From Bacillales bacterium UBA7029 (GTDB lineage Bacteria; Bacillota_I; Bacilli_A; RFN20; CAG-826), in contig DLBE01000043.1 in NCBI GenBank assembly GCA_002494205.1, forward strand, positions 15,893 to 79,892: a stretch of DNA of 64,000 nucleotides, written 5' to 3'. A program made the position numbers and the translations under genes. The notes beneath the pieces are model-generated. The model was not told the DNA's origin. It ran no database searches and worked only from the letters and a program-made list of their open reading frames with translations. This document shows, one piece after another, positions 3,293 through 49,234 of the stretch (its first letter is position 1; each line of letters opens with the position of its first letter).

Positions 3293-4717
3293 TTAGATTG
3301 AGAACAATAAAGCCGCAATTGAGAAATAAATAACTAAGCTAGAAACATCAACAATAGTTGTTAATAGTGGTTGAGAAACAATTGCTGGGTCTTTCTTAAT
3401 TGCAGCGGCACCCATAGGAAGTACAACAGCAACCATTTTTGACAAGAAAATGGCAATTGATAAAGTTCCTGCGACTAAGCCTGAAGTTTTGAATGTTTTA
3501 ATAGCAAAATCAGCAGTCCAACAGTTGCCAGCCCAAATTGATGCGTTGTCTATACTAACAATGCCTGTGTATTGTTCTAATGAGAACCAAATAAACCCAA
3601 AAACACCAATAAATAAGGCGATAATTAAGGCAGATAAAGCCTCTTTTCTAATAATTTTCCAAAACTCTTTTGGACTAAATTCTTGCAAAGCAAGACCACG
3701 AATCATAAGAGCGATTGTTTGGCCGCCTGCATTTCCGCCGGTATCCATAATAACTGGGATGAATGCAGCTAAAATCGGAAGGGCGTTTAATCGAGCTTCA
3801 AATCGTGATAAGACCAATGAGGAAAATGTTCCTAAAATAAGTAAAACAATAATCCAAGGAACACATTTTTTAACCATCGAAAAAGTGGATGTTTGAAGGT
3901 ACGAATCTTCTAATGGAGTAACCATTTGTAACTTGGAAATATCTTCTGTTTGTTCTTCTTCAATAACGTCCATAACATCGTCGACAGTAACGATGCCAAC
4001 AAGACGTCCATCATTATTTAAAACAGCGACAGCATTTAAGTCATAACGTTTAACAACGTTAGCAACATCTTCTTGGTCATCATTTACATTGACTGTGTTA
4101 AAGTCTTTATTCATGATCTCAGTTATAGGTTTTTCGCCATCTGCAAAAATCAAATCGTCTAAGTCAACAGTACCAACTAAATTACGTTGTCTGTCCATAA
4201 CGAAAACGGTATAAATTGTTTCTTTATTTTTACCAGTTTTACGGATAAGTCGAATTGCCTCATCACAAGTAACATCGTCTAACAAGACGACGAACTCGGT
4301 GGTCATAATGGAACCCGCGGAGTCCTCTTTGTAGTTTAAAAGACGATTAATACTAGCGCGTTTTTCTTTTGGAACGTTACGTAAAACACGACTGACAACG
4401 TTAGCAGGTAATTCTTCAAGATCATCAACGATATCGTCTGTAAATTGAGATTCAAGAATCTCAGATAGTTGGTCATCAGAAAGACATTTGATGACTTCTT
4501 CTTTAACTTCAGCAGGTAAATCTGTGAAGAATTCAGCAGTGTATTCTGATTTTACTGTCTTCAAAATGAAGACAATTTTCTTAACATCTTCTAAGTCAGC
4601 ACATGCTTCAGCAATATCAATTTCAGGGACAACCTCAAAAACATGTCTAAGTTCTTTGACATTTTTGGAATCAATTAATTTTTCAATTTGTTCAGTTGAA
4701 ATTAACTCATTTTCCAT
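3293..4717 (-). CDS. mgtE: magnesium transporter MgtE
   Basis: 474 aa; N-terminal MgtE-N domain, tandem CBS region and a C-terminal TM domain with the PVIMDTGGNAGGQT signature. Confidence 0.9.
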   Translation of the reverse strand: MENELISTEQIEKLIDSKNVKELRHVFEVVPEIDIAEACADLEDVKKIVFILKTVKSEYTAEFFTDLPAEVKEEVIKCLSDDQLSEILESQFTDDIVDDLEELPANVVSRVLRNVPKEKRASINRLLNYKEDSAGSIMTTEFVVLLDDVTCDEAIRLIRKTGKNKETIYTVFVMDRQRNLVGTVDLDDLIFADGEKPITEIMNKDFNTVNVNDDQEDVANVVKRYDLNAVAVLNNDGRLVGIVTVDDVMDVIEEEQTEDISKLQMVTPLEDSYLQTSTFSMVKKCVPWIIVLLILGTFSSLVLSRFEARLNALPILAAFIPVIMDTGGNAGGQTIALMIRGLALQEFSPKEFWKIIRKEALSALIIALFIGVFGFIWFSLEQYTGIVSIDNASIWAGNCWTADFAIKTFKTSGLVAGTLSIAIFLSKMVAVVLPMGAAAIKKDPAIVSQPLLTTIVDVSSLVIYFSIAALLFSI

Positions 4718-38418: not shown

Positions 38419-39174
38419 ATGAAGATACTTTTAGTAGATGATGAACAACTTCAATTAATCAGATTAGAAAAAGCTTGTAGGGCTGTTATACCTAGTGCTG
38501 ATTATTTTATTTTTACAAATCCGGTTAAAGCACTTGAAGAAAGTGAAAAAACCAAATTTGATGTTGCGTTTTTGGATATTGAAATGCCATCAATCAAAGG
38601 GATTCAACTTGCTAAAAAATTAAAGAAAAATAATCCTCTTTTAAGTGTTATTTTTGTAACGGCCTATACCGACTATGCTTTACAAGCTTTTAATATTCAT
38701 GCTTCTGGTTACATTACTAAGCCTGTTAACGAAGCGAAAATTAAAGAAGAAATTGAAAATCTTAAAAACATTTCTCCTTTACCGACTACTAAAAAATTAC
38801 AAGTTAAATGCTTCGGCAATTTTGAAGTATTTTGCAAAGGAGAACCAGTTAAATTCTCTTATAAAAAGTCTAAAGAAGTTTTCGCCTATCTTATAGATAG
38901 AGAAGGCTCTGCAATTAATATTAATGAGCTTAATGCAGTTTTGTGGGAGGAAGATCACCCTTCATATTTAAGAAACTTAATTGCAGATATTCAAAAAACT
39001 TTAAAATCACTTGATTGTGAGGATGTTTTCGTTAAACGCCATAACGAATGCTATATTGATGTTGATAAAATCGATTGCGATGCTTACGAATATAAAAAAG
39101 ATAATCCAAACGCTGTAAGACTTTATCGAGGCGAATACATGATGCAATATTCATGGCCAATATTTGATGAATAA
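38419..39174 (+). CDS. orphan response regulator: REC domain plus SARP/OmpR-like winged-helix output domain
   Basis: LLVDDE, phospho-acceptor D in FLDIEMP, T in VIFVTAY, K in GYITKP. C-terminal QVKCFGNFEVFCKGEPVKF...EVFAYL...LNAVLWEE is a winged helix of SARP type. Confidence 0.75.
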   Translation: MKILLVDDEQLQLIRLEKACRAVIPSADYFIFTNPVKALEESEKTKFDVAFLDIEMPSIKGIQLAKKLKKNNPLLSVIFVTAYTDYALQAFNIHASGYITKPVNEAKIKEEIENLKNISPLPTTKKLQVKCFGNFEVFCKGEPVKFSYKKSKEVFAYLIDREGSAININELNAVLWEEDHPSYLRNLIADIQKTLKSLDCEDVFVKRHNECYIDVDKIDCDAYEYKKDNPNAVRLYRGEYMMQYSWPIFDE

Positions 39175-39197
39175 AAATAGATTAGAATTTATTTAAA

Positions 39198-40397
39198 ATG
39201 TCTGAAATTGAAAGAACAAATAAGCTTATTTTGATGTTTAAGAATTATGAAGTTCTTTCTTTTTCATATGAATCAGAACCTAAACGAGTTGTTCATATAA
39301 TAGAAAAATTAGAGCATTTTGATAAAGCTCCCTATGGAGTTTTGCATCCACTTTATGACGAGGATACCGCACTTTTGAAATTTTTCAATTCGAGATCTAT
39401 CGCACCTCAAAGATATGATTACAATGAAATTCTTAAAGCTACTAATAGTAAGAATGGATTTGAACTATCTTTTAAAGGACACGGCTTATCTTTAACAAAC
39501 CATTATTGGTTTAAAAAAGAGGGTGAAAAATTAAAATACGAAGATATAAATTTCTTCACTAACAAGTGGGATGATTCCTTTGGAAGAGCGGTATTAAATA
39601 AAGATTATGAGAAACTAAAAAACTGTGATTTAAATGTTCCTGATATTGTTACTAATGGTTGGGCAGTTAAAGGATGGATTTGGGATAATGGTCCAAAGCT
39701 TTATAAATTCTCTAGAGATAAAATTAGCAGCGCAGAAGCTCTTGGTGAAGTTTTGGGTTCAAGACTTGCTAGAAGAATATTTCCAGATGATCAAGTTCTT
39801 CATTATGTACTTAAAAAAATTGGAAATAATTATGCTTCAGCAGCACCTGTACTTATTGGAATTGATGAAGAATTAGTTCCGCTTTCAAATTATTTTAAAT
39901 CTGATGTTTTTCACACTTATTTAAAAAGATTTAATAATAGAGAAGTCCAAAATGAATTTTTTAAATTAATAGAGCATTCTGGTATTCCAGGAATTAAAGA
40001 ATTTTTCATTAAAATTACATGTGTTAGACACTTATGTTTCATTTCCGATTTACATTTTGATAACATTTCTATTATTAAAAATAATAAAACAGGAAAACTA
40101 AGAATGTCTCCTTTATACGATTTAGCAGGAGCTTTCGGGACTTCTGAGTCAGGAAGAAAGTTTGTTTCTAACATTAATAAAGGAACATATCTAGTACTTT
40201 TCTATGTCTTTAATGAGCTAAATCCTGATTGGGATTATTCTTGGTATGACCCAAAACGACTTGACGGTTTCGAGAATGAAATAATCGAAATATTAACAAA
40301 ATCAGAATTTTATACACCCGAATTATTAGATAGAATAATAAATGTTTTCCGCTACCAAAAGGAAGCGTTAGATAAAATAGCAAAAAAGATTAAATAA
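39198..40397 (+). CDS. HipA-like Ser/Thr kinase family protein
   Basis: 399 aa; catalytic region ISDLHFDNISIIKNNKTGKLRMSPLYDLAGAFG matches the HipA_C DxHxxNxS...PxYD motif. 23-nt gap to the response-regulator gene. Confidence 0.55.
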   Translation: MSEIERTNKLILMFKNYEVLSFSYESEPKRVVHIIEKLEHFDKAPYGVLHPLYDEDTALLKFFNSRSIAPQRYDYNEILKATNSKNGFELSFKGHGLSLTNHYWFKKEGEKLKYEDINFFTNKWDDSFGRAVLNKDYEKLKNCDLNVPDIVTNGWAVKGWIWDNGPKLYKFSRDKISSAEALGEVLGSRLARRIFPDDQVLHYVLKKIGNNYASAAPVLIGIDEELVPLSNYFKSDVFHTYLKRFNNREVQNEFFKLIEHSGIPGIKEFFIKITCVRHLCFISDLHFDNISIIKNNKTGKLRMSPLYDLAGAFGTSESGRKFVSNINKGTYLVLFYVFNELNPDWDYSWYDPKRLDGFENEIIEILTKSEFYTPELLDRIINVFRYQKEALDKIAKKIK

Positions 40398-40398
40398 C

Positions 40399-40432
40399 TG
40401 TGACACATTTGTGGCAGATGCTTTGCTAGAAT
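40399..40432 (+). promoter_or_regulatory. heptamer direct repeats TGTGACA / TGTGGCA (11-bp register) abutting a TAGAAT -10 box upstream of the precursor gene
   Basis: Repeats at 40399-40405 and 40410-40416; TAGAAT at 40427-40432; ATG at 40455. Confidence 0.45.
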
Positions 40433-40454
40433 ACATTCAGGATTGGAATTGATT

Positions 40455-40658
40455 ATGAGGAAAGAATTGTTAAAAGGTTTAACTGAGGAACAAATAATTA
40501 AAGTGCAACAATGTAGCGATGTTCGTGATTTAATGCAACTTGCTAAAGATGAAGGTGTTGAATTAAATGATGAGCAACTAAAAGCTGTATCAGGTGGCGC
40601 TTGTTCTAGTGAAACAGATAAAGAAGATTCAGCGCATAATAGAAAAATTGAAAGTTAA
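40455..40658 (+). CDS. RiPP precursor peptide, Nif11-like leader with GG cleavage motif
   Basis: MRKELLKGLTEEQIIKVQQCSDVRDLMQLAKDEGVELNDEQLKAVSGG | ACSSETDKEDSAHNRKIES. The leader resembles Nif11 leaders (SEEQLKAF...IAKEAGF.IT.EEL...VAGG). 19-aa acidic core with one Cys. ATG 40455 is internal to the track ORF, which starts at TTG 40443. Confidence 0.75.
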   Translation: MRKELLKGLTEEQIIKVQQCSDVRDLMQLAKDEGVELNDEQLKAVSGGACSSETDKEDSAHNRKIES

Positions 40659-40660
40659 TA

Positions 40661-42055
40661 ATGTTTTTCCGTTTAAAAGATAATGTTGCATTAAGAAAAT
40701 GGAGATATGTTGATCGTGCGATTTATAAAAAAGGCATAGATCAAGCTCTTGGGGTTTCAAAGGAAGAATTTGAAATCCTTTTGCTATGCGATGGAGAACA
40801 CGATTTAGAAAATAACAAAATAATTCAAGAATTAAAAAATAGAAACCTCATTGAAGAATGTAACAAAGGCGATAAATTAAATGAATGGTCCAAGTTAAAG
40901 GAGTATGATAACTACTATTTTCCACGTATGAATCTAATGATTACTGGAAAATGTAATCTTAATTGTTTGCATTGCTTTAATGCAAAAGATAACGCTCCAT
41001 TAAATTCCGAACTCTCTTTTGAAGAAATTTTAACTATCTTAGATCAAGCAAAAGATATTGGCATTCATTGTTTTACATTAACTGGTGGTGAGCCATTAGT
41101 TCATCGTAAATTTTTAGATATTGTAAAAGCTATTTATGAAAGAAATATGTTCATTTTTGAGCTTAACACTAATGGCTTACTAATTAACCAAAAGATGCTC
41201 GATTTCTTTAAAGAAATAGGTTGCTATCCTTTAATAAAAATTTCTTATGATGGAATTGGTTATCATAACTGGATTAGACAACATCCTAAAGCTGAAGAAC
41301 TTACTTTAAAAGCTATTGAATTATGCATCAAAAATGGCTTCAGAGTGAAAGCCCAAGTTCAAGTTAATCGTAAGAATTTGGATTCGATGTTTGAAACCGC
41401 AAAACTACTTGATAAGATGGGCGTTGATGAGATGAGAATTATAAGAACAACTGAAGCTCCTCGATGGGAAAAGAACGCACCTCAATCATCTTTAACAATT
41501 GAAGAATATTACGAAAATATGCTGGATTTTGCGGCAAAATTCATGAAATCTGGGATGAAAATGACTGTTGATGTTTGGCAGTTTTTACGAATTTATCCAA
41601 GGCACAAACTTTACTCACTTGTACCTATTTCTTGTAATAAAGATGAATTTAATATTCGTATTCCAATGTGTAAAGGTAACCGCGGAATGATTGCTGTTTC
41701 TTCAAAAGGAGAAGTTGTTCCATGCTTACAAATGTCTGGTTACTTTTTGGAAAAAGGTATCAGCTTAGGAAATTTGTTTAAAACGCCTTTAAAAGAATTA
41801 GTGAAAAATAGTCCCTATCTAGATTTAGCAATGGCGCCATTATTTAAACAAATTATTGAGAATGATAAATGTGGTAATTGTAAATACTACAAAGCCTGTA
41901 CCGGTGGTTGCCCTGCTTTGGGCTTATTATATTCTAAAGATATTAATTTCTACCATGAAGATATTACTAAATGCATTTTCTTTGAAAATGGTTGGTATGA
42001 AAAAGTTACAGAAACTTTAAAAGATTTTCATTTACAAAATCCTTTAAATATTTAG
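40661..42055 (+). CDS. radical SAM/SPASM peptide maturase with N-terminal RRE (PqqD-like) domain
   Basis: CNLNCLHC (CxxxCxxC); N-terminal ~90-aa PqqD-like RRE; C-terminal SPASM with CNKDEFNIRIPMCKGNRGM...VVPC...CGNCKYYKACTGGCPA. 3-nt gap to the precursor gene. Confidence 0.85.
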   Translation: MFFRLKDNVALRKWRYVDRAIYKKGIDQALGVSKEEFEILLLCDGEHDLENNKIIQELKNRNLIEECNKGDKLNEWSKLKEYDNYYFPRMNLMITGKCNLNCLHCFNAKDNAPLNSELSFEEILTILDQAKDIGIHCFTLTGGEPLVHRKFLDIVKAIYERNMFIFELNTNGLLINQKMLDFFKEIGCYPLIKISYDGIGYHNWIRQHPKAEELTLKAIELCIKNGFRVKAQVQVNRKNLDSMFETAKLLDKMGVDEMRIIRTTEAPRWEKNAPQSSLTIEEYYENMLDFAAKFMKSGMKMTVDVWQFLRIYPRHKLYSLVPISCNKDEFNIRIPMCKGNRGMIAVSSKGEVVPCLQMSGYFLEKGISLGNLFKTPLKELVKNSPYLDLAMAPLFKQIIENDKCGNCKYYKACTGGCPALGLLYSKDINFYHEDITKCIFFENGWYEKVTETLKDFHLQNPLNI

Positions 42056-42072
42056 AATTTTCTTTCTTTGAC

Positions 42073-42105
42073 AATGCCAGCAAATTGAGTTTGGCATTTT
42101 TTATT
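42073..42105 (+). terminator. intrinsic terminator after the rSAM gene
   Basis: aatgcca-gcaaattgagtt-tggcatt hairpin followed by ttttatt. Confidence 0.6.
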
Positions 42106-42143
42106 TAGATTGTGTTTTACGCAATCTAAATTAATGATATAAT
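42106..42143 (+). promoter_or_regulatory. perfect inverted repeat TAGATTG-N9-CAATCTA followed by extended -10 TGATATAAT, 7 nt before ATG 42151 (leaderless)
   Basis: IR at 42106-42112 / 42122-42128; TG at 42135-42136; TATAAT at 42138-42143. Confidence 0.5.
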
Positions 42144-42150
42144 CATTATT

Positions 42151-42531
42151 ATGAAAAAGAATAAAGTTAGTATCTCTAATCCAGAAGAACTAGAAAAAAA
42201 TCTGCAATATTCTTCTCCAGTTACATGGATTGCTTTAGGAGTTGTCTTTTCTCTTATTGTGGGCCTTTTTGTATGGTCTTGCGTTTTCAAAATTAAAGAC
42301 AAAATTATAGGCAAAGCGAAAATTGTCAGTTCTGAAGTTACTCTTGTGGTTGACGCTAATTCTATTTCAAAATTAAAGGTTGGCCAAAAAGTTTATATTA
42401 ATAATTTAGAAGGCGAAATCTTAAAAATTGTTGAGAAAAAGCCTATTATTTCTCATTTTGCATTGGCTGATGGAGAGTACGAATACACCATTATTAATGA
42501 AATTAAACCAATAGAATACTTGATCAAATAA
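42151..42531 (+). CDS. small membrane-anchored protein, possible minimal HlyD/MFP-like export accessory
   Basis: 126 aa; one N-terminal TM; beta-rich C-terminus KAKIVSSEVTLVVDANSISKLKVGQKVYINNLEGEILKIV resembles an MFP barrel-sandwich hairpin. Confidence 0.35.
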   Translation: MKKNKVSISNPEELEKNLQYSSPVTWIALGVVFSLIVGLFVWSCVFKIKDKIIGKAKIVSSEVTLVVDANSISKLKVGQKVYINNLEGEILKIVEKKPIISHFALADGEYEYTIINEIKPIEYLIK

Positions 42532-42533
42532 TT

Positions 42534-44708
42534 ATGGAAAAGGTAAAGAAACCAAAGACTAAAGGCAAAGGAGTTGCAAATACTCCGTTAATCATGCAAT
42601 TAGAAGCTCTAGAATGTGGAGCTGCTTCTTTAACAATGGTTATGGCTTACTATGGAAAGTGGGTACCTCTTGAACAAGTTAGAGTTGATTGTGGTGTTTC
42701 TAGAAACGGAAGTAACGCTAAGAACATTCTTAGAGCTGCTCAAAAATATGGGTTTAAAACATCAGGTTATGCTTACAATATTCAAAAATTAAAAGAAAGA
42801 GGCAAATTTCCAGCGATCATTCACTGGGGTGGAGGCCACTTTGTTGTTTTAAATGGTTTTAGGGGTAATAAAGCAATTATTAATGACCCAGCTAAAGGAC
42901 TTGTTAAAGTCGATTTGAAGACTTTTGACAAAATATTTACCGGAATTTATCTTGAACTTGTTCCAGATGAAAATTTTGTTCCTAGCGGAAAAAGAAAATC
43001 AATTTTTTCATTTGCTAAGAAACGTCTTAAAGGCGCTTTGCCATTAATTATTTTCTTTTCAATTACGACAATTATTTTCTATGTTTTTAGCATTATTTCG
43101 CCTGCTATGAGCCAAGTTTTTGTCGATAAACTTTTAGGTGGGCAAAACCCGTCATGGCTGTTGCCATTTATTCTAGTATTTGCAAGTGTAGCATTGCTAC
43201 AAGTCGTCGTAACAGTAATTCAGAGCATATCGCAATATAAGATTCGAGGCAAACTAGATTTAATTGGTTCAACAACTTATATGTGGAGAATTTTAAGACT
43301 CCCTATTGAATTCTTCTCGCAAAGAATGGTTGGAGATTTGCAAGGACGTCAATCTGAAAACGCATCAATTGCAGAAACATTGGTTAATGTTTTCGCTCCT
43401 TTATTATTTAACACAATTATGATTGTGGTTTATCTGTTTGTAATGATTAATAAGAGCTGGATTTTATCTCTTGTGGGAGTAATAACAGTCCTTATAAATA
43501 TCTTTGTGTCGACAAGAATTTCTAAAGTCAGGGTCAATATTTCCCGTGTTCAAGCTAGAGATAACGCAAGACTTTCTGGCATGACTTCAAAAGGCATTGA
43601 AATGGTCGAAACAATTAAATCAAATGGTGCTGAGCAAGCTTATTTTGAATCTTGGTCCGATGTTCAAAACGATGTTGTTAAAGGAAAGCTTAGAATGTCG
43701 AAAATAAATGCATCACTAGGTTTAATTCCTTCATTTGCAGCAATGCTTGCAAATTACTCAATATTAATTCTTGGTGTTTTCTTCACTATTAAGGGTGAAT
43801 TCACAATTGGTTCAATTTTAGCTTTCCAAGGTTTACTTGGTTCATTTATGCAACCTGTTAATACTCTTATTTCAAGTGGTCAGACATTACAAGAAATGAG
43901 AACCATGATGGAAAGAGTGGATGATGTTTTGGAATATCCTTTAGATGAAAATGTTATTCGTGAAATTAAGACTGACAATGTTTCAAAAATTAAAGGTAAC
44001 CTCATTTTGAAAGATATAACTTTTGGTTATTCTAGACTAGACGAACCAATTTTAAAGAATTTTAATCTGGAAATAAAACAAGGACAAAAGGTTGCAATTG
44101 TTGGTTCAACAGGAAGCGGAAAATCAACGCTATCAAAATTAATTTCAGGTTTATATTCACCTTGGTCAGGAGAAATTATTTTTAATGGCAAGAAGATTAC
44201 TGAAATTGATCACGAAATTTTTACTTCATCAATTGCAGTTGTTGATCAAGATATAACAATGTATGAAGACACAATTTTAAATAATATTAAAATGTGGGAT
44301 GAATCTATTGAAGATTACGAAGTAATAATGGCATGTAATGATGCTCAAATACATAAACAAATCATGGCAAGAGAAGGTGGTTATAATGCTCCAGTTTTGG
44401 AAGGTGGTAAAAACTTCTCTGGTGGTGAGAAACAAAGACTTGAGATTGCTCGTTCTTTAGCTTCTGATCCAAGCATCATCATTTTAGATGAAGCTACAAG
44501 TGCGTTAGACGCCAAAACAGAATCTGAAGTTGTTAAAGCAATTAAAGCTCGTGGCATCACAACAATTGTTATTGCTCATAGATTATCTACCATTAGGGAT
44601 GCTGATTTGATTGTTGTTCTTAATAAAGGCGTAATTGTGGAGCAAGGAACTCACGAAGAATTAATGAAAAATAAAAGTTCATATTACGAACTTGTTACAA
44701 ATGATTAG
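42534..44708 (+). CDS. peptidase-containing ABC transporter (C39 peptidase plus 6 TM plus NBD)
   Basis: C39 Cys in QLEALECGAASL and His in GGGHFVVL; Walker A GSTGSGKST; LSGGEKQR; ILDEATSALD. Confidence 0.9.
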   Translation: MEKVKKPKTKGKGVANTPLIMQLEALECGAASLTMVMAYYGKWVPLEQVRVDCGVSRNGSNAKNILRAAQKYGFKTSGYAYNIQKLKERGKFPAIIHWGGGHFVVLNGFRGNKAIINDPAKGLVKVDLKTFDKIFTGIYLELVPDENFVPSGKRKSIFSFAKKRLKGALPLIIFFSITTIIFYVFSIISPAMSQVFVDKLLGGQNPSWLLPFILVFASVALLQVVVTVIQSISQYKIRGKLDLIGSTTYMWRILRLPIEFFSQRMVGDLQGRQSENASIAETLVNVFAPLLFNTIMIVVYLFVMINKSWILSLVGVITVLINIFVSTRISKVRVNISRVQARDNARLSGMTSKGIEMVETIKSNGAEQAYFESWSDVQNDVVKGKLRMSKINASLGLIPSFAAMLANYSILILGVFFTIKGEFTIGSILAFQGLLGSFMQPVNTLISSGQTLQEMRTMMERVDDVLEYPLDENVIREIKTDNVSKIKGNLILKDITFGYSRLDEPILKNFNLEIKQGQKVAIVGSTGSGKSTLSKLISGLYSPWSGEIIFNGKKITEIDHEIFTSSIAVVDQDITMYEDTILNNIKMWDESIEDYEVIMACNDAQIHKQIMAREGGYNAPVLEGGKNFSGGEKQRLEIARSLASDPSIIILDEATSALDAKTESEVVKAIKARGITTIVIAHRLSTIRDADLIVVLNKGVIVEQGTHEELMKNKSSYYELVTND

Positions 44709-44720
44709 AAAGGAGTAAAC

Positions 44721-46901
44721 ATGGGTTGGTTTGAAGAGCAAGTAAAACAAAGAAAAGAACTCGATGCAAAAACATTCGAAGAATCTTTCATGTCGCTTGC
44801 TGGATTAAAAGTCGATAATAAAGAAAGTTTGACTGACGAACAAATAAAAGATAACTTTGTTATTAGTCAAATACTTTCATATTTCAACCATCAACCTATT
44901 GATATTCCAAAGTCTATTGATAATTTTGAAGATAAATTAAATTATGTTATTTCACAAACGGATTTCGTTTATAGAAAGATCAATTTAGATAAATCTTATT
45001 CCGACAATAACAAGTTTCCAATCCTTATTTTTGTCCCATTTAATAACTCTCCAGTTTTACTTTTCCCTAAAGGAAAGGATAAATACTATTATATAAATTA
45101 CGCGACAGGAAAAAGAGCTACTATTGATTCTTATTTAGTGAACGGACTAGAACTTGAAGCATATACTTTCTATCGTCCACTTCCAAAATCAAAAATTTCA
45201 TTTAAAGGCTACGCTTCTTACTTAAAGAAATCGGTTAAACCATTGGATTTAATTTTGCTTATTTTGTTCACAATTGCCGCCTCTGGTGTCGGACTTTTAA
45301 TCCCTTTTCTCACTAAGAGATTGACAGGTGAAGTTGTTAGCAAAGGTGAAATCCCATTCTTTATTTTAATTTCAAGTTTTGTTGTAACCGCTGCAACAGG
45401 TTTACTTTTAGTAAAAGCGGTTCAGTCTTTTATCAATATTAAAGTTTCAACTAAGATTGAGAAGTCTATTCAAGAAGCCACAATGATGAGAGTTTTATCT
45501 CTCCCAGCTTCTTTCTTTAAGAAACATAATACCGGTGAACTTGGCTTAAGATTTAGCAATGTAGTCTTTTTAGCAAGATTAATCATTGCTGGAATGTTTA
45601 CAACGCTAACTTCGGTTATCATGTCTTTTGCTTATGTATTCCAATTAATTGGTTTTGCCCCATCCTTAATTTGGCCTGTTGTACTAATTTTATTAGTGAA
45701 CACAAGTTTTACAATTTTAATTTCTTTTATTCAGAAAGAATATGCTAAAAAACAACTTGAACTAAGCGCTAAAGAAGCTGGTGTTACTTATGAAATGATT
45801 AATGGCATCCAAAAGATTAGACTTTCCGGAAGCGAAAAACGTATTTTTGCAAAATGGGCTAGTGCTTATTCTAAGAGTGCAAAACTTAAATATAATCCTC
45901 CTATGATTTTAAAACTTAGTGGAGCATTGTCCTTATTAATTTCATTATTAGGTACTCTACTTATTTATTTTGTGGCCGCCAAAAACAACATTGATGCAAG
46001 TAGTTACATGGCATTTATGTCTAGCTATGGTGTTTTATCTGCTGCTTTTGCATCTTTATCTCAAGTTGCTAGTACATTATTTACTATTCAACCAATTTAT
46101 GAAATGGCTCGCCCAATTTTGGAAAGCGAACCTGAATCTAATGAAGGAAAAATTGAACTTAAACACATTACTGGAAATATCACAATTAAAGATGTCTCCT
46201 TTAGATACACTGAAACTGGTCCACTTATCTTAAATAAGTTTAATTTAGACATTAAAGAAGGCGAATATCTTGCAATAGTTGGTCAAACAGGTTGTGGTAA
46301 ATCTACATTGGTGAGACTTTTACTTGGTTTTGAAAAACCTATAAATGGTGAAGTATTATATGATAATATAAACATTAATGATGTTAATTTAACTTCATTA
46401 AGAAAGAATATTGGTACTGTTATGCAAAATGGAACTTTATTCCATGCTGATATTCTATCTAACATCATTATTTCTAACCCGAGTCTAAAAAACGAAGATG
46501 CTTGGGAAGCAGCGGAGATTGCTAATATTGCCGAAGATATTAGAGAAATGCCAATGGGAATGAGAACTGTTATATCGGAAGGTCAAGGTGGTATCTCTGG
46601 TGGTCAAAAACAAAGGATTATGATTGCTAGAGCAATCGTCCATAAACCTAAAATTCTCATCTTTGATGAGGCAACATCCGCTTTAGATAATAAAACCCAA
46701 AAATCTATTTCAGATTCAATCAGTAAACTCAATTGTACACGTATTGTAATCGCGCATAGACTATCGACAATTAAAAATGCTGATCGAATTATTATGCTTG
46801 AGGGTGGCAAAATTATAGAGCAAGGAGATTATAAAACTTTGATTGCTAAAAATGGCAAGTTTGCTGAACTTGTTGAAAGACAAAGACTTGATACTAATTA
46901 G
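44721..46901 (+). CDS. partner ABC transporter with a degenerate, Cys-less C39-like N-terminal domain
   Basis: 726 aa; the N-terminal ~150 aa lack a catalytic Cys; 6 TM; Walker A GQTGCGKST; ISGGQKQR; IFDEATSALD. SD AAAGGAG. Confidence 0.85.
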   Translation: MGWFEEQVKQRKELDAKTFEESFMSLAGLKVDNKESLTDEQIKDNFVISQILSYFNHQPIDIPKSIDNFEDKLNYVISQTDFVYRKINLDKSYSDNNKFPILIFVPFNNSPVLLFPKGKDKYYYINYATGKRATIDSYLVNGLELEAYTFYRPLPKSKISFKGYASYLKKSVKPLDLILLILFTIAASGVGLLIPFLTKRLTGEVVSKGEIPFFILISSFVVTAATGLLLVKAVQSFINIKVSTKIEKSIQEATMMRVLSLPASFFKKHNTGELGLRFSNVVFLARLIIAGMFTTLTSVIMSFAYVFQLIGFAPSLIWPVVLILLVNTSFTILISFIQKEYAKKQLELSAKEAGVTYEMINGIQKIRLSGSEKRIFAKWASAYSKSAKLKYNPPMILKLSGALSLLISLLGTLLIYFVAAKNNIDASSYMAFMSSYGVLSAAFASLSQVASTLFTIQPIYEMARPILESEPESNEGKIELKHITGNITIKDVSFRYTETGPLILNKFNLDIKEGEYLAIVGQTGCGKSTLVRLLLGFEKPINGEVLYDNININDVNLTSLRKNIGTVMQNGTLFHADILSNIIISNPSLKNEDAWEAAEIANIAEDIREMPMGMRTVISEGQGGISGGQKQRIMIARAIVHKPKILIFDEATSALDNKTQKSISDSISKLNCTRIVIAHRLSTIKNADRIIMLEGGKIIEQGDYKTLIAKNGKFAELVERQRLDTN

Positions 46902-46915
46902 TGGAGGCTAATAAT

Positions 46916-47203
46916 ATGAAACATAGTTTAGAAAAAGATGTACTTACACTCTTCTTAGAAGGAGAACTTAATTCTTTTAATTCTGAAGATGTTGAGAAAG
47001 AAATTGAAGAAATACTTAAAACAAATTCCTTTAAATCAATTGTTTTAGATTTAAAAGATTTGACTTATATTTCATCTGCTGGTCTTAGAATAATTATTAG
47101 ACTTAAACAACAATGTGATAATACTTCAATTATTCACACTCCAAAGGATGTTTTAAATATTTTTAAAATGGTAGGATTTACTAGTATTTTAAAAATTGAT
47201 TAA
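46916..47203 (+). CDS. STAS-domain protein (anti-sigma-factor antagonist, SpoIIAA/RsbV-like)
   Basis: LDLKDLTYISSAGLRIIIRL contains the conserved phosphorylatable Ser region. SD GTGGAGG 8 nt upstream of ATG 46916. Confidence 0.75.
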   Translation: MKHSLEKDVLTLFLEGELNSFNSEDVEKEIEEILKTNSFKSIVLDLKDLTYISSAGLRIIIRLKQQCDNTSIIHTPKDVLNIFKMVGFTSILKID

Positions 47204-47205
47204 TT

Positions 47206-49056
47206 ATGGCTTTAAAAGAAAGACAATTTGTTGACGCTTATCATGATAATGAAGCAGATGCCAATAGGCATATGTCTTTTGTTAATGCAGCTGCTGGTAT
47301 TTTGGCTTTAATTATTTGGGCTTTGTATTTAGCAAGAGTATTTACAATTCCTGATCATTTTTTCCCAGTTGTCATGATTTTATTCCCTACAGCAGCAGTA
47401 TTGTTATTTGTGCCACTTTTTCTTGTGAAAACTGATCTTGTAAGAAGACCTGCTTATAAATACTTTATAATATTTTCACTTTTGGCTGTTGTTATTGCAT
47501 TAAATATATCAATTCCAAAACATTCTCTTTTATTTTGGCCCTTTATTATTTTAATCGCGAATCACTATTACAATCCTACGCTAGGGCGTGTAGTTTATGT
47601 TGTGACTATTGTTGCAATGCTTATTTGCATGTATTTAGGCATGTTTTTTGGTGAATTTGATGAAAACTTATTTGGTGGTGGTGTCATTTTAAAAGATGGT
47701 ACAATCGGAACAGTTGAAACATTTACTGAACGAAAAGAGCTTCTAGATCAACTTGCTAAAAACGGAAATAACCGTTACATTAAAGCTCTTATTTTCTATT
47801 ATTTCCCTAGAGCGATGATTGTTACATTGTTCTTTATGGTAAGTAATCTTTTAAACAAAAGAACATATAAACTGCTTGATGCTGAAATTAGAGCTCACGA
47901 CGAACAAGAAAAAGCAAAAACAGAGCTAGAAGTTGCTAAAGGCATCCAACTAAATACACTTCCAGGTGAATTTGCGTCTAATGACGGTGTAGAAATCTTA
48001 GGTGAACTAAGAGCCGCAAAAGAAGTTGGTGGAGATCTTTATGATTATGTTGATATTGATAAAGACCACGTCGCTATTTTAATTGGAGATGTTTCTGGTA
48101 AAGGCGTTCCTGCTGCTATGTTTATGATGAAGACAATCACTTCATTTAGAGACTTTGCAACTAAAGGAAAAAGCCCATCTGAAATTCTTAAAGCAGTTAA
48201 TAAATCAATTTTTAAAGGAAATACTGACTTCATGTTTGTAACTTGTTTCCTTGCTATTTTAGACAAAATAACAGGCAAACTTGTTTATGCAAATGCAGGT
48301 CATAATCCACCTATTATTGGTTCAAATAAAAATTATAAATTTTTAAATAGTAAACCTGGTTTAATTTTAGGCTGTTTTGAGAATTCAAATGTTGTTGATG
48401 AAGAAATTATTTTAAAACCAGGTGAGACTATTACTTTATATACTGACGGAATTACTGAAGCAAAAAACGGAGAAGGAAAACTATTTGGTGAAAGTAGATT
48501 CCTTAATGTTTTTAATAAGAAAAACTACACTTGCACAATTGAGCTCCATAGTCAGATTAAAGATGAAATTGCAGAATTTGTTAAAGATGCACCTCAAAGT
48601 GACGATATAACAATTTTAACATTAAGATATAAAGGTGATAATTTACAATACGATCAAAAACATTTTGAAGCCAAAAAAGAAAATACCGTCGATATTCTTG
48701 GCTTCATTAAAGATTTCTCTGCAAGACATAATTTTTCAGGCGAATTTACAAATAAACTTTTGATAGTAGGTGACGAACTTGCCTCAAATATTATCAACCA
48801 TGGTTATAAAAATAACGGTGGACCTATCTTTATTCGTTTACTTTTTAATGAAGATAAAAAAGAATTTGTATTAACAATTATCGATAGTGCTGTTGAATTT
48901 AATCAACTAGAGGTTGAGGACACCCCAATTTCTGGAGAAGCTAAAAAACAAAAAATTGGCGGACTTGGTTTACTAATTGTTAAAAACATTATGGATGAAT
49001 ATTCTTATCAAAGAGTGAACAATAAGAACATCTTGGTATTAAAGAAAAACCTTTAA
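47206..49056 (+). CDS. membrane sensor fused to a PP2C (SpoIIE/RsbU-type) phosphatase and a GHKL anti-sigma-factor-type Ser kinase
   Basis: 616 aa; ~5 N-terminal TM; PP2C motifs GDVSGKGVPAAMFMM ... TDGITEA ... DDITIL; C-terminal HATPase_c of RsbW type ELASNIINHGY ... GGLGLLIVKNIMDE. Confidence 0.75.
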   Translation: MALKERQFVDAYHDNEADANRHMSFVNAAAGILALIIWALYLARVFTIPDHFFPVVMILFPTAAVLLFVPLFLVKTDLVRRPAYKYFIIFSLLAVVIALNISIPKHSLLFWPFIILIANHYYNPTLGRVVYVVTIVAMLICMYLGMFFGEFDENLFGGGVILKDGTIGTVETFTERKELLDQLAKNGNNRYIKALIFYYFPRAMIVTLFFMVSNLLNKRTYKLLDAEIRAHDEQEKAKTELEVAKGIQLNTLPGEFASNDGVEILGELRAAKEVGGDLYDYVDIDKDHVAILIGDVSGKGVPAAMFMMKTITSFRDFATKGKSPSEILKAVNKSIFKGNTDFMFVTCFLAILDKITGKLVYANAGHNPPIIGSNKNYKFLNSKPGLILGCFENSNVVDEEIILKPGETITLYTDGITEAKNGEGKLFGESRFLNVFNKKNYTCTIELHSQIKDEIAEFVKDAPQSDDITILTLRYKGDNLQYDQKHFEAKKENTVDILGFIKDFSARHNFSGEFTNKLLIVGDELASNIINHGYKNNGGPIFIRLLFNEDKKEFVLTIIDSAVEFNQLEVEDTPISGEAKKQKIGGLGLLIVKNIMDEYSYQRVNNKNILVLKKNL

Positions 49057-49114
49057 TGAATAGACACAAAAATAAGAAATTTAAGGGAATTCCTGGGGAT
49101 TTTGCAAAAAAAGA

Positions 49115-49140
49115 AAAGCACAAATAAGTGCTTTTTTCTT
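49115..49140. terminator. bidirectional terminator between the kinase/phosphatase gene and tRNA-Ser
   Basis: aaagcac-aaataa-gtgcttt hairpin with T-runs on both strands. Confidence 0.7.
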
Positions 49141-49143
49141 TCC

Positions 49144-49234
49144 TGGCGGAGTAGGCGAGGTTCGAACTCGCGCACCAGTTACCCGGTCTAACGGTTTAGC
49201 AAACCGTCCCCTTGAGCCTCTTGGGTACTACTCC
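49144..49234 (-). tRNA. tRNA-Ser (anticodon GCU)
   Basis: Reverse complement is GGAGTAGTACCCAAGAGGCTCAAGGGGACGGTTTGCTAAACCGTTAGACCGGGTAACTGGTGCGCGAGTTCGAACCTCGCCTACTCCGCCA. Confidence 0.85.

Follow-up and report, generated by a model that had tools for sequence, protein, structure and literature searches.

The window analyzed here, 64,000 nucleotides of the Bacillales bacterium UBA7029 assembly, carries nine co-oriented open reading frames (ORFs) between positions 38,419 and 49,056 of the + strand, all present where a preliminary description of this DNA had placed them (Table 1); the long ORFs are intact under translation table 11. Homology and gene anatomy give the order precursor, radical SAM (rSAM) enzyme, short membrane adaptor, C39 ABC exporter and second ABC subunit, and regulatory and kinase genes lie on both sides. 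Judged from sequence, the locus holds as a self-contained RiPP operon comprising a GG-leader precursor, an rSAM/SPASM maturase and an NHLM-like two-ABC exporter.

Table 1. Features of the operon, in positions of the 64,000-nucleotide window
Feature	Position	Strand	Basis
Response regulator (RR), REC + winged-helix-like output domain	38419..39174	+	Pfam Response_reg 78.9 bits
HipA/CtkA-like Ser/Thr kinase, 399 aa, cytoplasmic	39198..40397	+	Weak HipA_C
Precursor leader, 48 aa, ends AVSGG	40455..40598	+	Read from sequence
Core peptide ACSSETDKEDSAHNRKIES, 19 aa, + stop codon	40599..40658	+	Typical member of core family
Radical SAM/SPASM peptide maturase	40661..42055	+	CX3CX2C + SPASM Cys; residues 1-90 RRE-like (inferred)
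Short single-pass membrane protein, N-terminus of NHLM HlyD-type adaptors	42151..42531	+	TIGR03794 26.2 bits
ABC1: ABC exporter, N-terminal C39 peptidase (residues 18-146)	42534..44708	+	Pfam, TIGR03796
ABC2: second ABC exporter subunit	44721..46901	+	TIGR03797
STAS anti-sigma-antagonist-like protein	46901..47203	+	STAS 50.7 bits; TIGR00377 55.7 vs 53.45
TM-PP2C-RsbW fusion membrane protein	47206..49056	+	SpoIIE 176.9 + HATPase_c_2 70.1 bits
Terminator-like hairpin + T-run, operon end	49112..49137	+	dG -10.7 kcal/mol, z -2.8

The double-glycine site and the single-Cys core can be read directly from the 67-aa precursor, in which AVSGG is followed immediately by the hydrophilic core. Because 182 protein clusters match this small ORF (E<=1e-3) and the same cassette order is found again in dozens of independent MAGs, we regard it as a real gene rather than a chance ORF. 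Its stop codon lies 2 nt ahead of the rSAM ATG; together with seven orthologous loci, the window gives a range of 1-4 nt for this gap, and a class A core adjoins the enzyme in 16 Bacilli-type loci as well as in the window. The leader consensus, which begins M.kELLkGLTeeQIaKvkacdd, continues through DL.QLAKDEGVEL and ends EQL.AisGG, is kept in 115 of the 120 retrieved proteins, all of them short-core homologues. This leader had been described as Nif11-like; its GG end stands, but the Nif11/NHLP models are not passed (PF07862 13.4 against 23.8; no listing of TIGR03798 at E<=10), and only the last 23 columns of the true Nif11 leaders found beside orthologous enzymes can be aligned with it. Against the GG-leader model TIGR01847 it scores 15.1, with a cutoff of 15.7.

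More than 100 distinct cores make up the family, and the counts given here refer to 107 unique short cores. A Cys occupies core position 1-3 in 107/107 and is the only one in 104/107, while a C-terminal [RK]-(I/F/Y/V)-[ED]-x motif, seen as [HK]-R-K-I-E-S, is found in 85 and missing from the other 22. The Cys and the hydrophobic residue stand 9-19 residues apart, separated by a polar, hypervariable spacer rich in S/K/T/D/R/N/E. Such a conserved Cys end and a conserved C-terminal motif around a variable loop are the pattern predicted by end-to-end ring closure. The cores are 12-23 aa long, of mixed charge and without Trp, and all are strongly hydrophilic (GRAVY -1.2 to -2.3). The earlier wording "strongly acidic" overstates the window core, which, with five acidic residues against three basic ones and one His (pI 4.9), is only mildly so; across homologous cores the pI runs from 4.1 to 10.3.

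These properties bear on whether the product is an antimicrobial bacteriocin whose regulatory genes control immunity or production, a reading that we consider unlikely. A GG leader with a C39 ABC transporter is the classic bacteriocin export route, two homologues carry the JGI annotation "bacteriocin-like protein," and in sister loci this leader is joined to cores of ~45 aa, Cys-rich and zinc-ribbon-like, as it is to LanM substrates in Clostridia, where relatives of the operon have LanM and true Nif11 leaders added. Against this, short cores of extreme hydrophilicity and mixed charge do not resemble membrane-active peptides, no immunity gene is recognizable within the 64-kb window, and the window contains no further peptide with the same leader.

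The maturase scores 76.4 bits for Radical_SAM, 33.6 for SPASM and 30.5 for Fer4_12 in Pfam. The CxxxCxxC cluster and full SPASM domain reported previously are confirmed: the CX3CX2C motif (C98/C102/C105) and seven SPASM cysteines (C337, C355, C404, C407, C413, C417 and C438) are invariant or >=90% conserved in 104 sequences, down to 46% identity. We classify the enzyme as a three-cluster rSAM/SPASM maturase, with two auxiliary clusters predicted in its SPASM domain. The PqqD-like N-terminal element of the preliminary description escapes detection as a PqqD/RRE by Pfam or PDB profiles but is suggested by an AlphaFold model (pLDDT 92.3), from which we infer that residues 1-90 form a winged-helix-like, peptide-binding-like domain resembling an RRE. 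The nearest structures to this model are the RiPP maturases SuiB, SkfB, anSME, PqqE and CteB, about equal, with SuiB the best full-length match; the top sequence-profile match is SkfB. Since neighbors of differing chemistry (C-C, thioether, formylglycine) score equally, the fold picks no chemistry.

Relatives of the enzyme in other lineages set a limit on the role of the Cys. In Lachnospiraceae, Cys-free cores such as LYEEQYKNKNDFIDD are followed, after 76-77 nt, by orthologous enzymes at 67-69% identity, and in two Clostridial loci a Cys-free core directly follows the enzyme, so that Cys cannot be a universal partner. The thioether chemistry proposed earlier is thus plausible but, with orthologous enzymes adjoining Cys-free cores, not safe. 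A different chemistry, which we judge possible though rather improbable, would have the rSAM enzyme act only inside the C-terminal motif, either by epimerizing the I/F/Y/V residue, as YydG/EpeE epimerizes Val and Ile, or by forming a C-C/C-O/C-N link to which Lys, Arg or the hydrophobic residue contributes. In that case the conserved Cys would have another function, for instance in a disulfide dimer or a receptor contact. The Cys found in every short core is hard to explain in this way without a direct role, and a two-auxiliary-cluster SPASM domain together with the SkfB profile match suits a thioether.

The enzyme's varied company also raises the question of whether the peptide is modified at all. 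It might be an unmodified GG pheromone of the ComC/BlpC kind, with the rSAM enzyme directed at other targets, for example zinc-ribbon or LanM peptides encoded elsewhere in the genome or a protein such as STAS: the enzyme is found beside very different cores, STAS adjoins the rSAM gene in many Clostridial loci and two Lachnospiraceae loci (L024 and L029), and locus L001 has the enzyme with no detectable precursor in the locus. We consider this very improbable in view of the 1-4 nt between precursor and rSAM genes, the class A cores adjoining the enzyme, its putative N-terminal peptide-binding-like domain, and the want of an alternative substrate with the same leader in the window.

As described earlier, the export genes resemble those of NHLM systems (TIGR03794/03796/03797). 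The 126-aa adaptor, with one predicted TM helix (residues 27-45), corresponds only to positions 2-64 of the 421-position TIGR03794 NHLM HlyD model, and a protein of 118-140 aa is kept at this position in 32 loci. ABC1 (Peptidase_C39 110.9, ABC_membrane 95.6 and ABC_tran 109.7 bits) has TIGR03796 as its best NCBIfam model, at 839.7 just under the cutoff of 853.3; its translation shows the Cys motif LECGAASL and the His motif GGGHFVVL, and its C39 domain is expected to cut after GG. ABC2 likewise falls just under the cutoff of its best model, TIGR03797 (647.2 against 709.4). The peptidase-like domain with a lost Cys that had been attributed to ABC2 is undetectable: residues 1-170 have no Pfam match and align to the ABC1 N-terminus at a BLASTP E of 41, and Lachnospiraceae alignments begin only at residue 136-146. 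Nor is a separate promoter for the transport module supported. The count of promoter-like sites matches background (59 vs 52+-7 in shuffles), and the gap upstream of the module, which holds one 10/12 site and a weak hairpin (z -0.84), is missing in several orthologous loci. At the operon end, 0/200 shuffles fold as well as the hairpin, which reads as a terminator on either strand and was flagged by the scanner on the - strand.

Of the regulatory proteins, the RR aligns to OmpR-family NCBIfam and PDB entries to about residue 190, 12 orthologues show strong conservation of its C-terminal half, and no histidine kinase accompanies it in the operon. The 399-aa kinase scores 18.7 bits for HipA_C, below the cutoff of 30.5, and matches CtkA (3akj) by profile at E 0.016; D284-x-H286-x-x-N289 and D308 are invariant, and no TM helix is predicted. 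A distant HipA-like homologue occupies the equivalent position in Lachnospiraceae loci, upstream of which a STAND-like ATPase is also seen. The STAS protein, which may in fact begin at ATG 46916, has Ser58/59 within a DLxxLxYISSAGL motif. The fusion protein combines ~5-6 TM helices (25-212), a PP2C domain (286-475) and an RsbW-like serine kinase (487-614), the latter two being separate genes in Clostridia and Lachnospiraceae. An ECF-type sigma factor lies between STAS and RsbW in Lachnospiraceae, where the module forms a complete partner-switching circuit; the module in the window lacks such a factor. The TM domain (61% mean identity vs 58-69% for the rest of the protein) is no more variable than its surroundings, so co-diversification of the sensor with the peptide is unsupported.

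Synteny ties these genes to the peptide. Among close relatives with enough flank, the three exporter genes lie 3' of the rSAM gene in 14/14 loci, and STAS and PP2C are each present in 13/14; close loci retain the precursor in 16/18, the HipA-like gene in 14/18 and the RR in 10/18. Membrane PP2C, STAS and RsbW are co-inherited with the enzyme in Bacilli, Lachnospiraceae and Clostridia. Such conservation shows the REC, HipA-like and STAS/PP2C-RsbW genes to be part of the system and not chance neighbors, as the preliminary description had supposed in treating the locus as one RiPP cluster. That a HipA-type toxin-antitoxin or anti-phage defense island merely sits beside a peptide exporter is scarcely credible. 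HipA-like kinases are known toxins, PADLOC returns weak matches (the kinase to candidate PDC-M03A at 26.5 bits, the rSAM core to pVip at 62.5 bits), and there is the Lachnospiraceae ATPase; however, the PADLOC matches are generic and domain-level, all the genes co-occur with a precursor and C39 exporter, no HipB-like partner accompanies the kinase, and searches for homologues of the enzyme in phages and plasmids gave none. The operon family is, by all appearances, large, uncharacterized and drawn mostly from ruminant-gut or rumen genomes, the relatives being rumen MAGs labeled Bacilli, Erysipelotrichaceae or Bacillales. The searchable literature contains no description of this operon type with its regulatory genes, in line with the novelty claimed for the combination.

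We propose, with confidence and doubt about evenly balanced, that the operon makes an rSAM-modified, exported peptide, a Cys-to-C-terminal-motif macrocycle that acts as a variable signal. The leader would be bound by the enzyme's N-terminal winged-helix-like domain, and the enzyme would abstract hydrogen from one of the residues of the conserved R-K-I-E-S motif and join that residue to Cys50 of the precursor (core position 2), closing a thioether macrocycle of ~14-17 residues around the hypervariable polar loop. ABC1, whose C39 domain is complete, would then cut at the GG motif, after Gly48, and the ABC1/ABC2 pair would export the 19-mer. More speculatively, the strongly hydrophilic cores and the co-inheritance of PP2C/STAS/RsbW with the enzyme suggest that the mature peptide is a strain-variable signal, not a toxin; it may be sensed at the membrane by TM-PP2C-RsbW, which would set the phosphorylation state of STAS, with the REC regulator and HipA-like kinase as a possible transcriptional or peptide-phosphorylating arm.

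Among known systems, NHLP/Nif11-leader RiPP systems with the NHLM export set (Haft, Basu and Mitchell, 2010; PMC2887384), some of which include rSAM maturases (PMC4289311), share the GG-terminated leader, the peptidase ABC, second ABC and adaptor with the same best models, and Clostridial relatives of the enzyme adjoin true Nif11 leaders. The window differs in its 48-aa leader that fails the Nif11/NHLP models, its sub-cutoff ABCs, its adaptor stub covering 64 of 421 model positions, and its STAS, PP2C, RsbW, REC and HipA-like genes, which are absent from NHLM descriptions. The enzyme is only ~16% identical to SkfB, which forms one Cys-to-Met thioether in the sactipeptide SkfA and whose C-terminus is of the [2Fe-2S]/twitch type, not a full SPASM; SKF, unlike the product proposed here, is a hydrophobic, head-to-tail cyclized toxin, and its leader and export genes differ. 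Identity to the streptide system SuiA/SuiB, a quorum-sensing-controlled rSAM RiPP, is 14-15%; streptide has a Lys-Trp C-C link, where the cores of this family have no Trp, and Shp/Rgg control in place of partner switching. Ranthipeptides/SCIFF (CteB, PapB) likewise have SPASM maturases, which link Cys through a thioether to carbons other than the alpha carbon. Such peptides are frequent among Firmicutes of the gut and rumen (PMC7804863, PMC13289728), and the title of Chen et al. 2020, as cited in PMC7804863, proposes them as clostridial quorum-sensing peptides.

On the signaling side, ComC/BlpC are short GG-leader peptides, cleaved and exported by a C39 ABC transporter (ComAB/BlpAB), with strain-variable mature forms. 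The window shares the short GG-leader peptide and C39 ABC transporter; ComC/BlpC, however, are unmodified and sensed by a histidine kinase and LytTR regulator, whereas the window has an rSAM enzyme, no histidine kinase, and membrane PP2C-RsbW with STAS as the candidate sensor. Like RsbU/RsbV/RsbW and SpoIIE/SpoIIAA/SpoIIAB, it combines a STAS protein with a phosphorylatable Ser, a PP2C and an RsbW-type kinase, and its Lachnospiraceae relatives keep the sigma factor of such modules. Unlike them, the window's PP2C-RsbW is fused to a multi-TM domain, lacks a sigma factor and sits inside a RiPP export operon.

The nine plus-strand reading frames listed in the preliminary description are all present at the coordinates given there, and the analysis bears out its main reading of them as a RiPP gene cluster, although seven details of that interpretation did not stand. 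Intergenic gaps within the operon range from 2 to 95 nt, and the start codon of the radical SAM (rSAM) enzyme lies 2 nt after the precursor stop. G+C content is slightly lower in the cluster (29-32%) than in its flanks (32-35%), and none of the window's flanking genes is common to any other related locus compared. Insertion of the operon beside the abutting tRNA-Ser gene is a possibility; a search for a plasmid or phage homologue of the rSAM enzyme found none, and an Rfam scan of the window returned tRNAs only. The transport genes had been described as a separately promoted module, but an internal promoter or terminator separating them from the rSAM gene is not supported: promoter-like sites do not exceed background, the hairpin has a z of -0.84, and the gap itself is missing in three related loci (L007, L027 and L028).

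Features of the operon (window positions) and of related loci found in other genomes via the rSAM enzyme (L numbers, with positions in each locus)
Feature	Position	Strand	Basis or remark
REC-domain regulator	38419-39174	+	Pfam/NCBIfam
399-aa protein, sub-threshold HipA_C match	39198-40397	+	Pfam
Precursor ORF, 67 aa	40455-40658	+	sequence
Radical_SAM + SPASM + Fer4_12 protein	40661-42055	+	Pfam
126-aa single-pass membrane protein (adaptor)	42151-42531	+	NHLM HlyD model, first 64 of 421 positions only
C39-peptidase ABC exporter (ABC1)	42534-44708	+	best family TIGR03796, 839.7 bits vs cutoff 853.3
Second ABC subunit (ABC2)	44721-46901	+	TIGR03797, 647.2 vs 709.4
STAS protein	46901-47203	+	Pfam/NCBIfam
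About 5-6 TM helices + SpoIIE/PP2C + RsbW-type HATPase_c_2	47206-49056	+	Pfam, TM prediction
Hairpin with T-run, operon end	49112-49137	terminator-like on both	dG -10.7, z -2.8
tRNA-Ser(GCU) gene	49144-49234	-	abuts operon 3' end, only the hairpin between
Zinc-ribbon-type precursors, five in tandem	L003:488-2109
Zinc-ribbon-type precursors	L005:103-390 and 3670-3957; L007:6564-7826; L010:19666-19956; L011:16583-16867
LanM-rSAM loci	L033:659-5603; L034:5034-11214; L037:3560-8843; L041:4325-8966; L048:7068-11413
Lachnospiraceae version	L019:8021-14521		similar in L022, L030
STAS-APH/choline-kinase-like fusion	L010:16570-17721		also L001, L003, L004, L013, L017

Database searches with the rSAM enzyme matched over 1,600 protein clusters at E<=1e-10; the figure is an upper bound, since remoter radical-SAM proteins are counted in it, and over 120 of these clusters are 75-100% identical to the enzyme. 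Scanning one genome per species yielded 51 loci in as many species-level genomes, and most of their record names indicate ruminant gut samples. Enzyme identity is 65-81% in records labelled Bacilli, 'Erysipelotrichaceae' or 'Bacillales', 66-69% in Lachnospiraceae and 46-59% in Oscillospiraceae, Ruminococcus, Clostridia and one Treponema, and the single cultured strain among the loci is Butyrivibrio proteoclasticus P18 (51%). Gene neighbors were counted in loci whose enzyme is at least 72% identical and whose flanks are long enough. The adaptor, ABC1 and ABC2 genes lie downstream of the enzyme in 14 of 14 loci and the STAS and PP2C genes in 13 of 14; the HipA-like gene lies upstream in 14 of 18 and the regulator in 10 of 18, and 16 of 18 have a homologous precursor. 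These counts indicate that the regulatory and kinase genes are part of the system, as had been proposed. The operon is real and non-random. In the related locus L012, the longest ATG-initiated enzyme ORF (L012:10001-11395) starts at residue ~90, which may reflect an interruption of the N-terminal domain; 6 kb from the enzyme, on the opposite strand, are the genes for precursor and exporter (L012:1-4431, minus strand). Rearrangement or decay of this copy is possible.

The enzyme belongs to the radical SAM superfamily (PF04055, 76.4 vs 29.5), and its C98-x3-C102-x2-C105 cluster is invariant in an alignment of 104 sequences. The SPASM domain was assessed by the seven-Cys motif of two auxiliary clusters, C-x9-15-G-x4-C ... 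C-x2-C-x5-C-x3-C ... C. This motif is present as C337-x12-G350-x4-C355, C404-x2-C407-x5-C413-x3-C417 and C438 (PF13186, 33.6 vs 21.5); six of the seven cysteines are invariant and C407 is at least 90% conserved among the 104 sequences, and all seven are invariant in a 16-sequence alignment. The CxxxCxxC cluster and full SPASM domain of the preliminary description are thus confirmed, auxiliary-cluster cysteines included. An N-terminal CDG motif (C43-D44-G45; invariant in the 16 and at least 90% conserved in the 104) and a C-terminal TKCxFFENGWYEK block (invariant in the 16, largely conserved in the 104) are conserved as well.

None of the NCBIfam equivalogs passed for this protein, which places it in no curated maturase family; the best scores (AhbD 110, ScmE 105, and DynA, WgkB, StsB, PapB and others at 60-85 bits) represent domain-level similarity only. 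The sactipeptide and ranthipeptide synthase equivalogs scored below their cutoffs (PapB NF047865, 74.6 vs 340; StsB NF045574, 78.5 vs 625), and the SCIFF precursor models gave no match to the precursor. As for the PqqD-like element attributed to the N terminus, Pfam detected no PqqD domain (PF05402-type winged helix of three strands and three helices) at E<=10 when 16 such N-terminal regions were scanned, and searching PDB with a profile of this domain gave no match either. However, an AlphaFold (AF2) model, run with the 104-sequence alignment, folds the N-terminal 90 residues into a small beta/alpha domain (b-b-b-a-b-a-b over residues 2-67), and the RRE-bearing SuiB is the structure that aligns with the model over the largest number of residues. 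We describe this domain as RRE-like, not proven.

The leader of the precursor had been assigned to the Nif11/NHLP type, an assignment that the family models do not support: PF07862 scores 13.4 vs 23.8, TIGR03798 is not listed at E<=10, and hhalign pairs the window's leader with true Nif11 leaders over the last 23 columns only, at a probability of 26%. The GG-leader model TIGR01847 gives 15.1, just below its cutoff of 15.7. The leader motif ELNDEQLKAVSGG is present, ABC1 carries a complete C39 domain in cis (110.9 bits), and cleavage after GG is predicted. Besides the 67-mer, the window encodes no other peptide with a leader of this family.

A search with the 67-mer gave 182 clusters, and the best 120 of these 182 contained 107 unique short cores. 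All 107 have a Cys at position 1-3 (position 2 in 103), which is the only Cys in 104 and is preceded by Ala in 86 and followed by Ser in 87. At the opposite end, 85 cores bear the motif [RK]-(I/F/Y/V)-[ED]-x, with the consensus [HK]-R-K-I-E-S and a terminal Ser in 68 of the 85. The ends are joined by a spacer of variable sequence and length in which Ser, Lys, Thr, Asp, Arg, Asn and Glu are frequent; the distance from the Cys to the hydrophobic residue is 9-19 residues. In the window the core is ACSSETDKEDSAHNRKIES, a canonical example of this bipartite family; previously considered strongly acidic, it is mildly so (pI 4.9), and its homologues range from pI 4.1 to 10.3, the constant feature being extreme hydrophilicity. 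Upstream of the normal precursor in one related locus, a small ORF (L009:6179-6340) begins with another kind of short leader, with GGG at its end, and its core, GGPITHRKIDACADLDKLYLNEE, carries an HRKID motif followed by Cys, the reverse of the usual order.

The precursors and gene neighborhoods of related loci vary by lineage. Many Bacilli-type loci encode extra precursors in which the same 48-aa leader precedes Cys-rich, zinc-ribbon-type cores of ~45 aa, with a Cys just after GG and the pattern CPxCGS...CxxCG[HFY]xW, up to five in tandem; none occurs in the window. In Clostridia, Treponema and Butyrivibrio, the enzyme directly follows a LanM of ~900 aa (DUF4135 + LANC_like) and is preceded further upstream by one to three long precursors with true Nif11 leaders; x-C-[NS]-x-x-[TS] is the usual start of their cores. 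All 11 of these long leaders match TIGR03798 at E<=1, and the single listed score, that of Butyrivibrio locus L048, exceeds the cutoff (35.7 vs 32.3). This arrangement suggests that the LanM-adjacent loci may make hybrid lanthipeptide/rSAM products. In the Lachnospiraceae, the gene order is HipA_C-like gene, 272-aa unknown protein, precursor, enzyme, HAMP-PP2C, STAS, ECF-type sigma factor, RsbW, adaptor, ABC1 and ABC2. Their precursor is Cys-free and has a different leader (..ELSDDELDMISAAG, then LYEEQYKNKNDFIDD; ...MISAAG before the core). We dropped the idea of a universal core Cys once such cores were found beside orthologous enzymes; Cys is not universal in the adjacent cores, and a C-terminus of the type K-(F/I)-(I/M)-D-(D/E) is common to the Lachnospiraceae and Bacilli cores.

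By homology, the cluster combines a ribosomal precursor and a three-cluster rSAM/SPASM maturase with an export set of short membrane adaptor, C39 ABC exporter and additional ABC subunit. In the mechanism that we propose, the leader would dock on the enzyme's N-terminal domain, the enzyme would form a radical on a carbon of the conserved motif at the C-terminus, and the Cys50 thiol would trap it, so that the variable loop is enclosed in a large thioether ring; ABC1 would then cleave after Gly48, and the ABC pair would export the 19-mer. For the Cys-free Lachnospiraceae cores, Tyr at the equivalent N-terminal position could act as the trap. An N-terminal C-x3-[T/S/D/N] ring, as in PapB-type ranthipeptides, was set aside as the main model because position +4 is variable and the conserved C-terminal motif is a much stronger signal. 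The enzyme might also perform a different chemistry within that motif, for instance epimerization of the hydrophobic residue or formation of a C-C, C-O or C-N link, which would be compatible with the Cys-free relatives and with equal structural scores but would leave the Cys of 107 in 107 cores unexplained; we consider this unlikely, though a serious candidate. That the product is an unmodified pheromone and the enzyme acts elsewhere is very improbable in view of the gap of 1-4 nt between precursor and enzyme in the window and seven orthologous loci.

Export of the putative thioether peptide would depend on proteins whose resemblance to the NHLM system is partial. The best-hit families of the adaptor and the two ABC subunits are TIGR03794, TIGR03796 and TIGR03797, but both ABC proteins remain under their cutoffs, and the adaptor, a truncated form, scores 26.2 vs 156.2. 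The peptidase-like domain with a lost Cys that had been ascribed to ABC2 could not be recognized, as no degenerate C39 domain is detectable in this protein. Alignments of ABC2 with its Lachnospiraceae homologues (L019, L021, L023, L024, L025, L029 and L030) begin at residue 136-146, the N-terminal ~140 residues being missing or too diverged, and the region is therefore perhaps an optional accessory domain.

Judged by gene content, the partner-switching module is the enzyme's most constant companion and, in one lineage, a predicted complete sigma-factor switch. In the window, the STAS protein (TIGR00377, 55.7 vs 53.45) carries Ser58/59 within an ISSAGL motif, the last gene matches SpoIIE (176.9) and HATPase_c_2 (70.1), and the operon contains no sigma factor. 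The Lachnospiraceae relatives encode one (Sigma70_r2 65.6, r4_2 47.8), flanked by the STAS gene and that of the RsbW-like kinase, and their partner-switching circuit is thereby complete. In Clostridial loci the genes after the enzyme are STAS, PP2C and an RsbW-like gene of its own; in B. proteoclasticus P18, PP2C and STAS are upstream of it, and the Treponema contig ends before that region. Six loci have a fusion of STAS to an APH/choline-kinase-like phosphotransferase (382-391 aa) between the STAS and PP2C genes. The HipA-like protein scores 18.7 with PF07804 (cutoff 30.5) and matches CtkA (3akj) at E 0.016, and its D284, H286, N289 and D308, invariant in 16 orthologues, correspond to the expected D-x-H-x-x-N and downstream Asp. 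The regulator has a REC domain (78.9 bits) with D7, D8, D53 and K101; alignments to OmpR-family models and DrrB (1p2f) extend to residue ~190, and residues 125-251 have no Pfam match at E<=10.

The conserved ends, the hypervariable and highly polar loop and the co-inherited membrane PP2C/STAS/RsbW module suggest that a strain-variable signal fits better than a membrane-active toxin. An antimicrobial role could draw on the export route and on the zinc-ribbon and LanM cargo of sister loci, but the physicochemistry of the short cores and the lack of an immunity gene make it improbable. We give almost no credence to a toxin-antitoxin or defense island, as PADLOC matches are generic only. If the peptide is a signal, the system might represent a new type of quorum sensing, in which the multi-TM PP2C-RsbW protein would act as membrane reader of a thioether-cyclized peptide that varies between strains ('pherotype'), a PP2C-RsbW/STAS route replacing the usual histidine kinase or RRNPP receptor. 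STAS partner switching would then act on the ECF sigma factor in Lachnospiraceae and, in the Bacilli version, on the REC regulator or directly on the exporter; the target of the co-inherited HipA-like kinase would be either of the core's two conserved serines, or the regulator. Taken jointly, pherotype peptide, PP2C-RsbW and STAS switching and HipA-like kinase form a reading that we regard as doubtful, and the peptide-sensing protein, the output of the sigma-less version and the kinase substrate are speculation. Within the PP2C-RsbW protein, the TM domain shows no more variation than the other domains, which gives no independent support for this protein as the receptor; nor does the comparison support co-diversification of this putative sensor domain with the peptide.

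If these proposals are true, a large and abundant group of ruminant-gut Firmicutes and one Treponema MAG have in common a peptide system that is uncharacterized in product class, in enzyme family and in regulatory wiring, and that comprises over 100 distinct cores. The bipartite core, with its fixed Cys, fixed RKIES end and hypervariable loop, offers a precise and cheap hypothesis for a new macrocycle. For the related version that contains LanM, B. proteoclasticus P18 is a cultured entry point. A RiPP exporter constantly coupled to STAS/PP2C/RsbW would be the first link between a peptide natural product and partner switching, and it could explain communication or competition among uncultured rumen Bacilli. 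Uncharacterized rSAM RiPP families are common; the regulatory wiring here would be new if functional.

Full-text literature searches with motif strings, rSAM together with partner switching, and rumen RiPP surveys found no description of the family, within a coverage that is incomplete and leaves an earlier description possible. The surveys of rumen RiPPs consulted cover SCIFF/ranthipeptides and lanthipeptides, not the present family (PMC7804863, PMC13289728, PMC7268733), and NHLP/Nif11-type clusters with radical SAM genes have been noted in anaerobes (PMC4289311). On the sequence evidence, we regard the system as an uncharacterized rSAM RiPP family, most of whose known members come from genomes of the ruminant gut. 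Its core is sharply bipartite, and its conserved association with genes for partner switching and a HipA-like protein is unusual. Although its leader, both ABC subunits and the adaptor all fail the curated models, the system appears to work like an NHLP/Nif11-type rSAM RiPP with NHLM export (PMC2887384).
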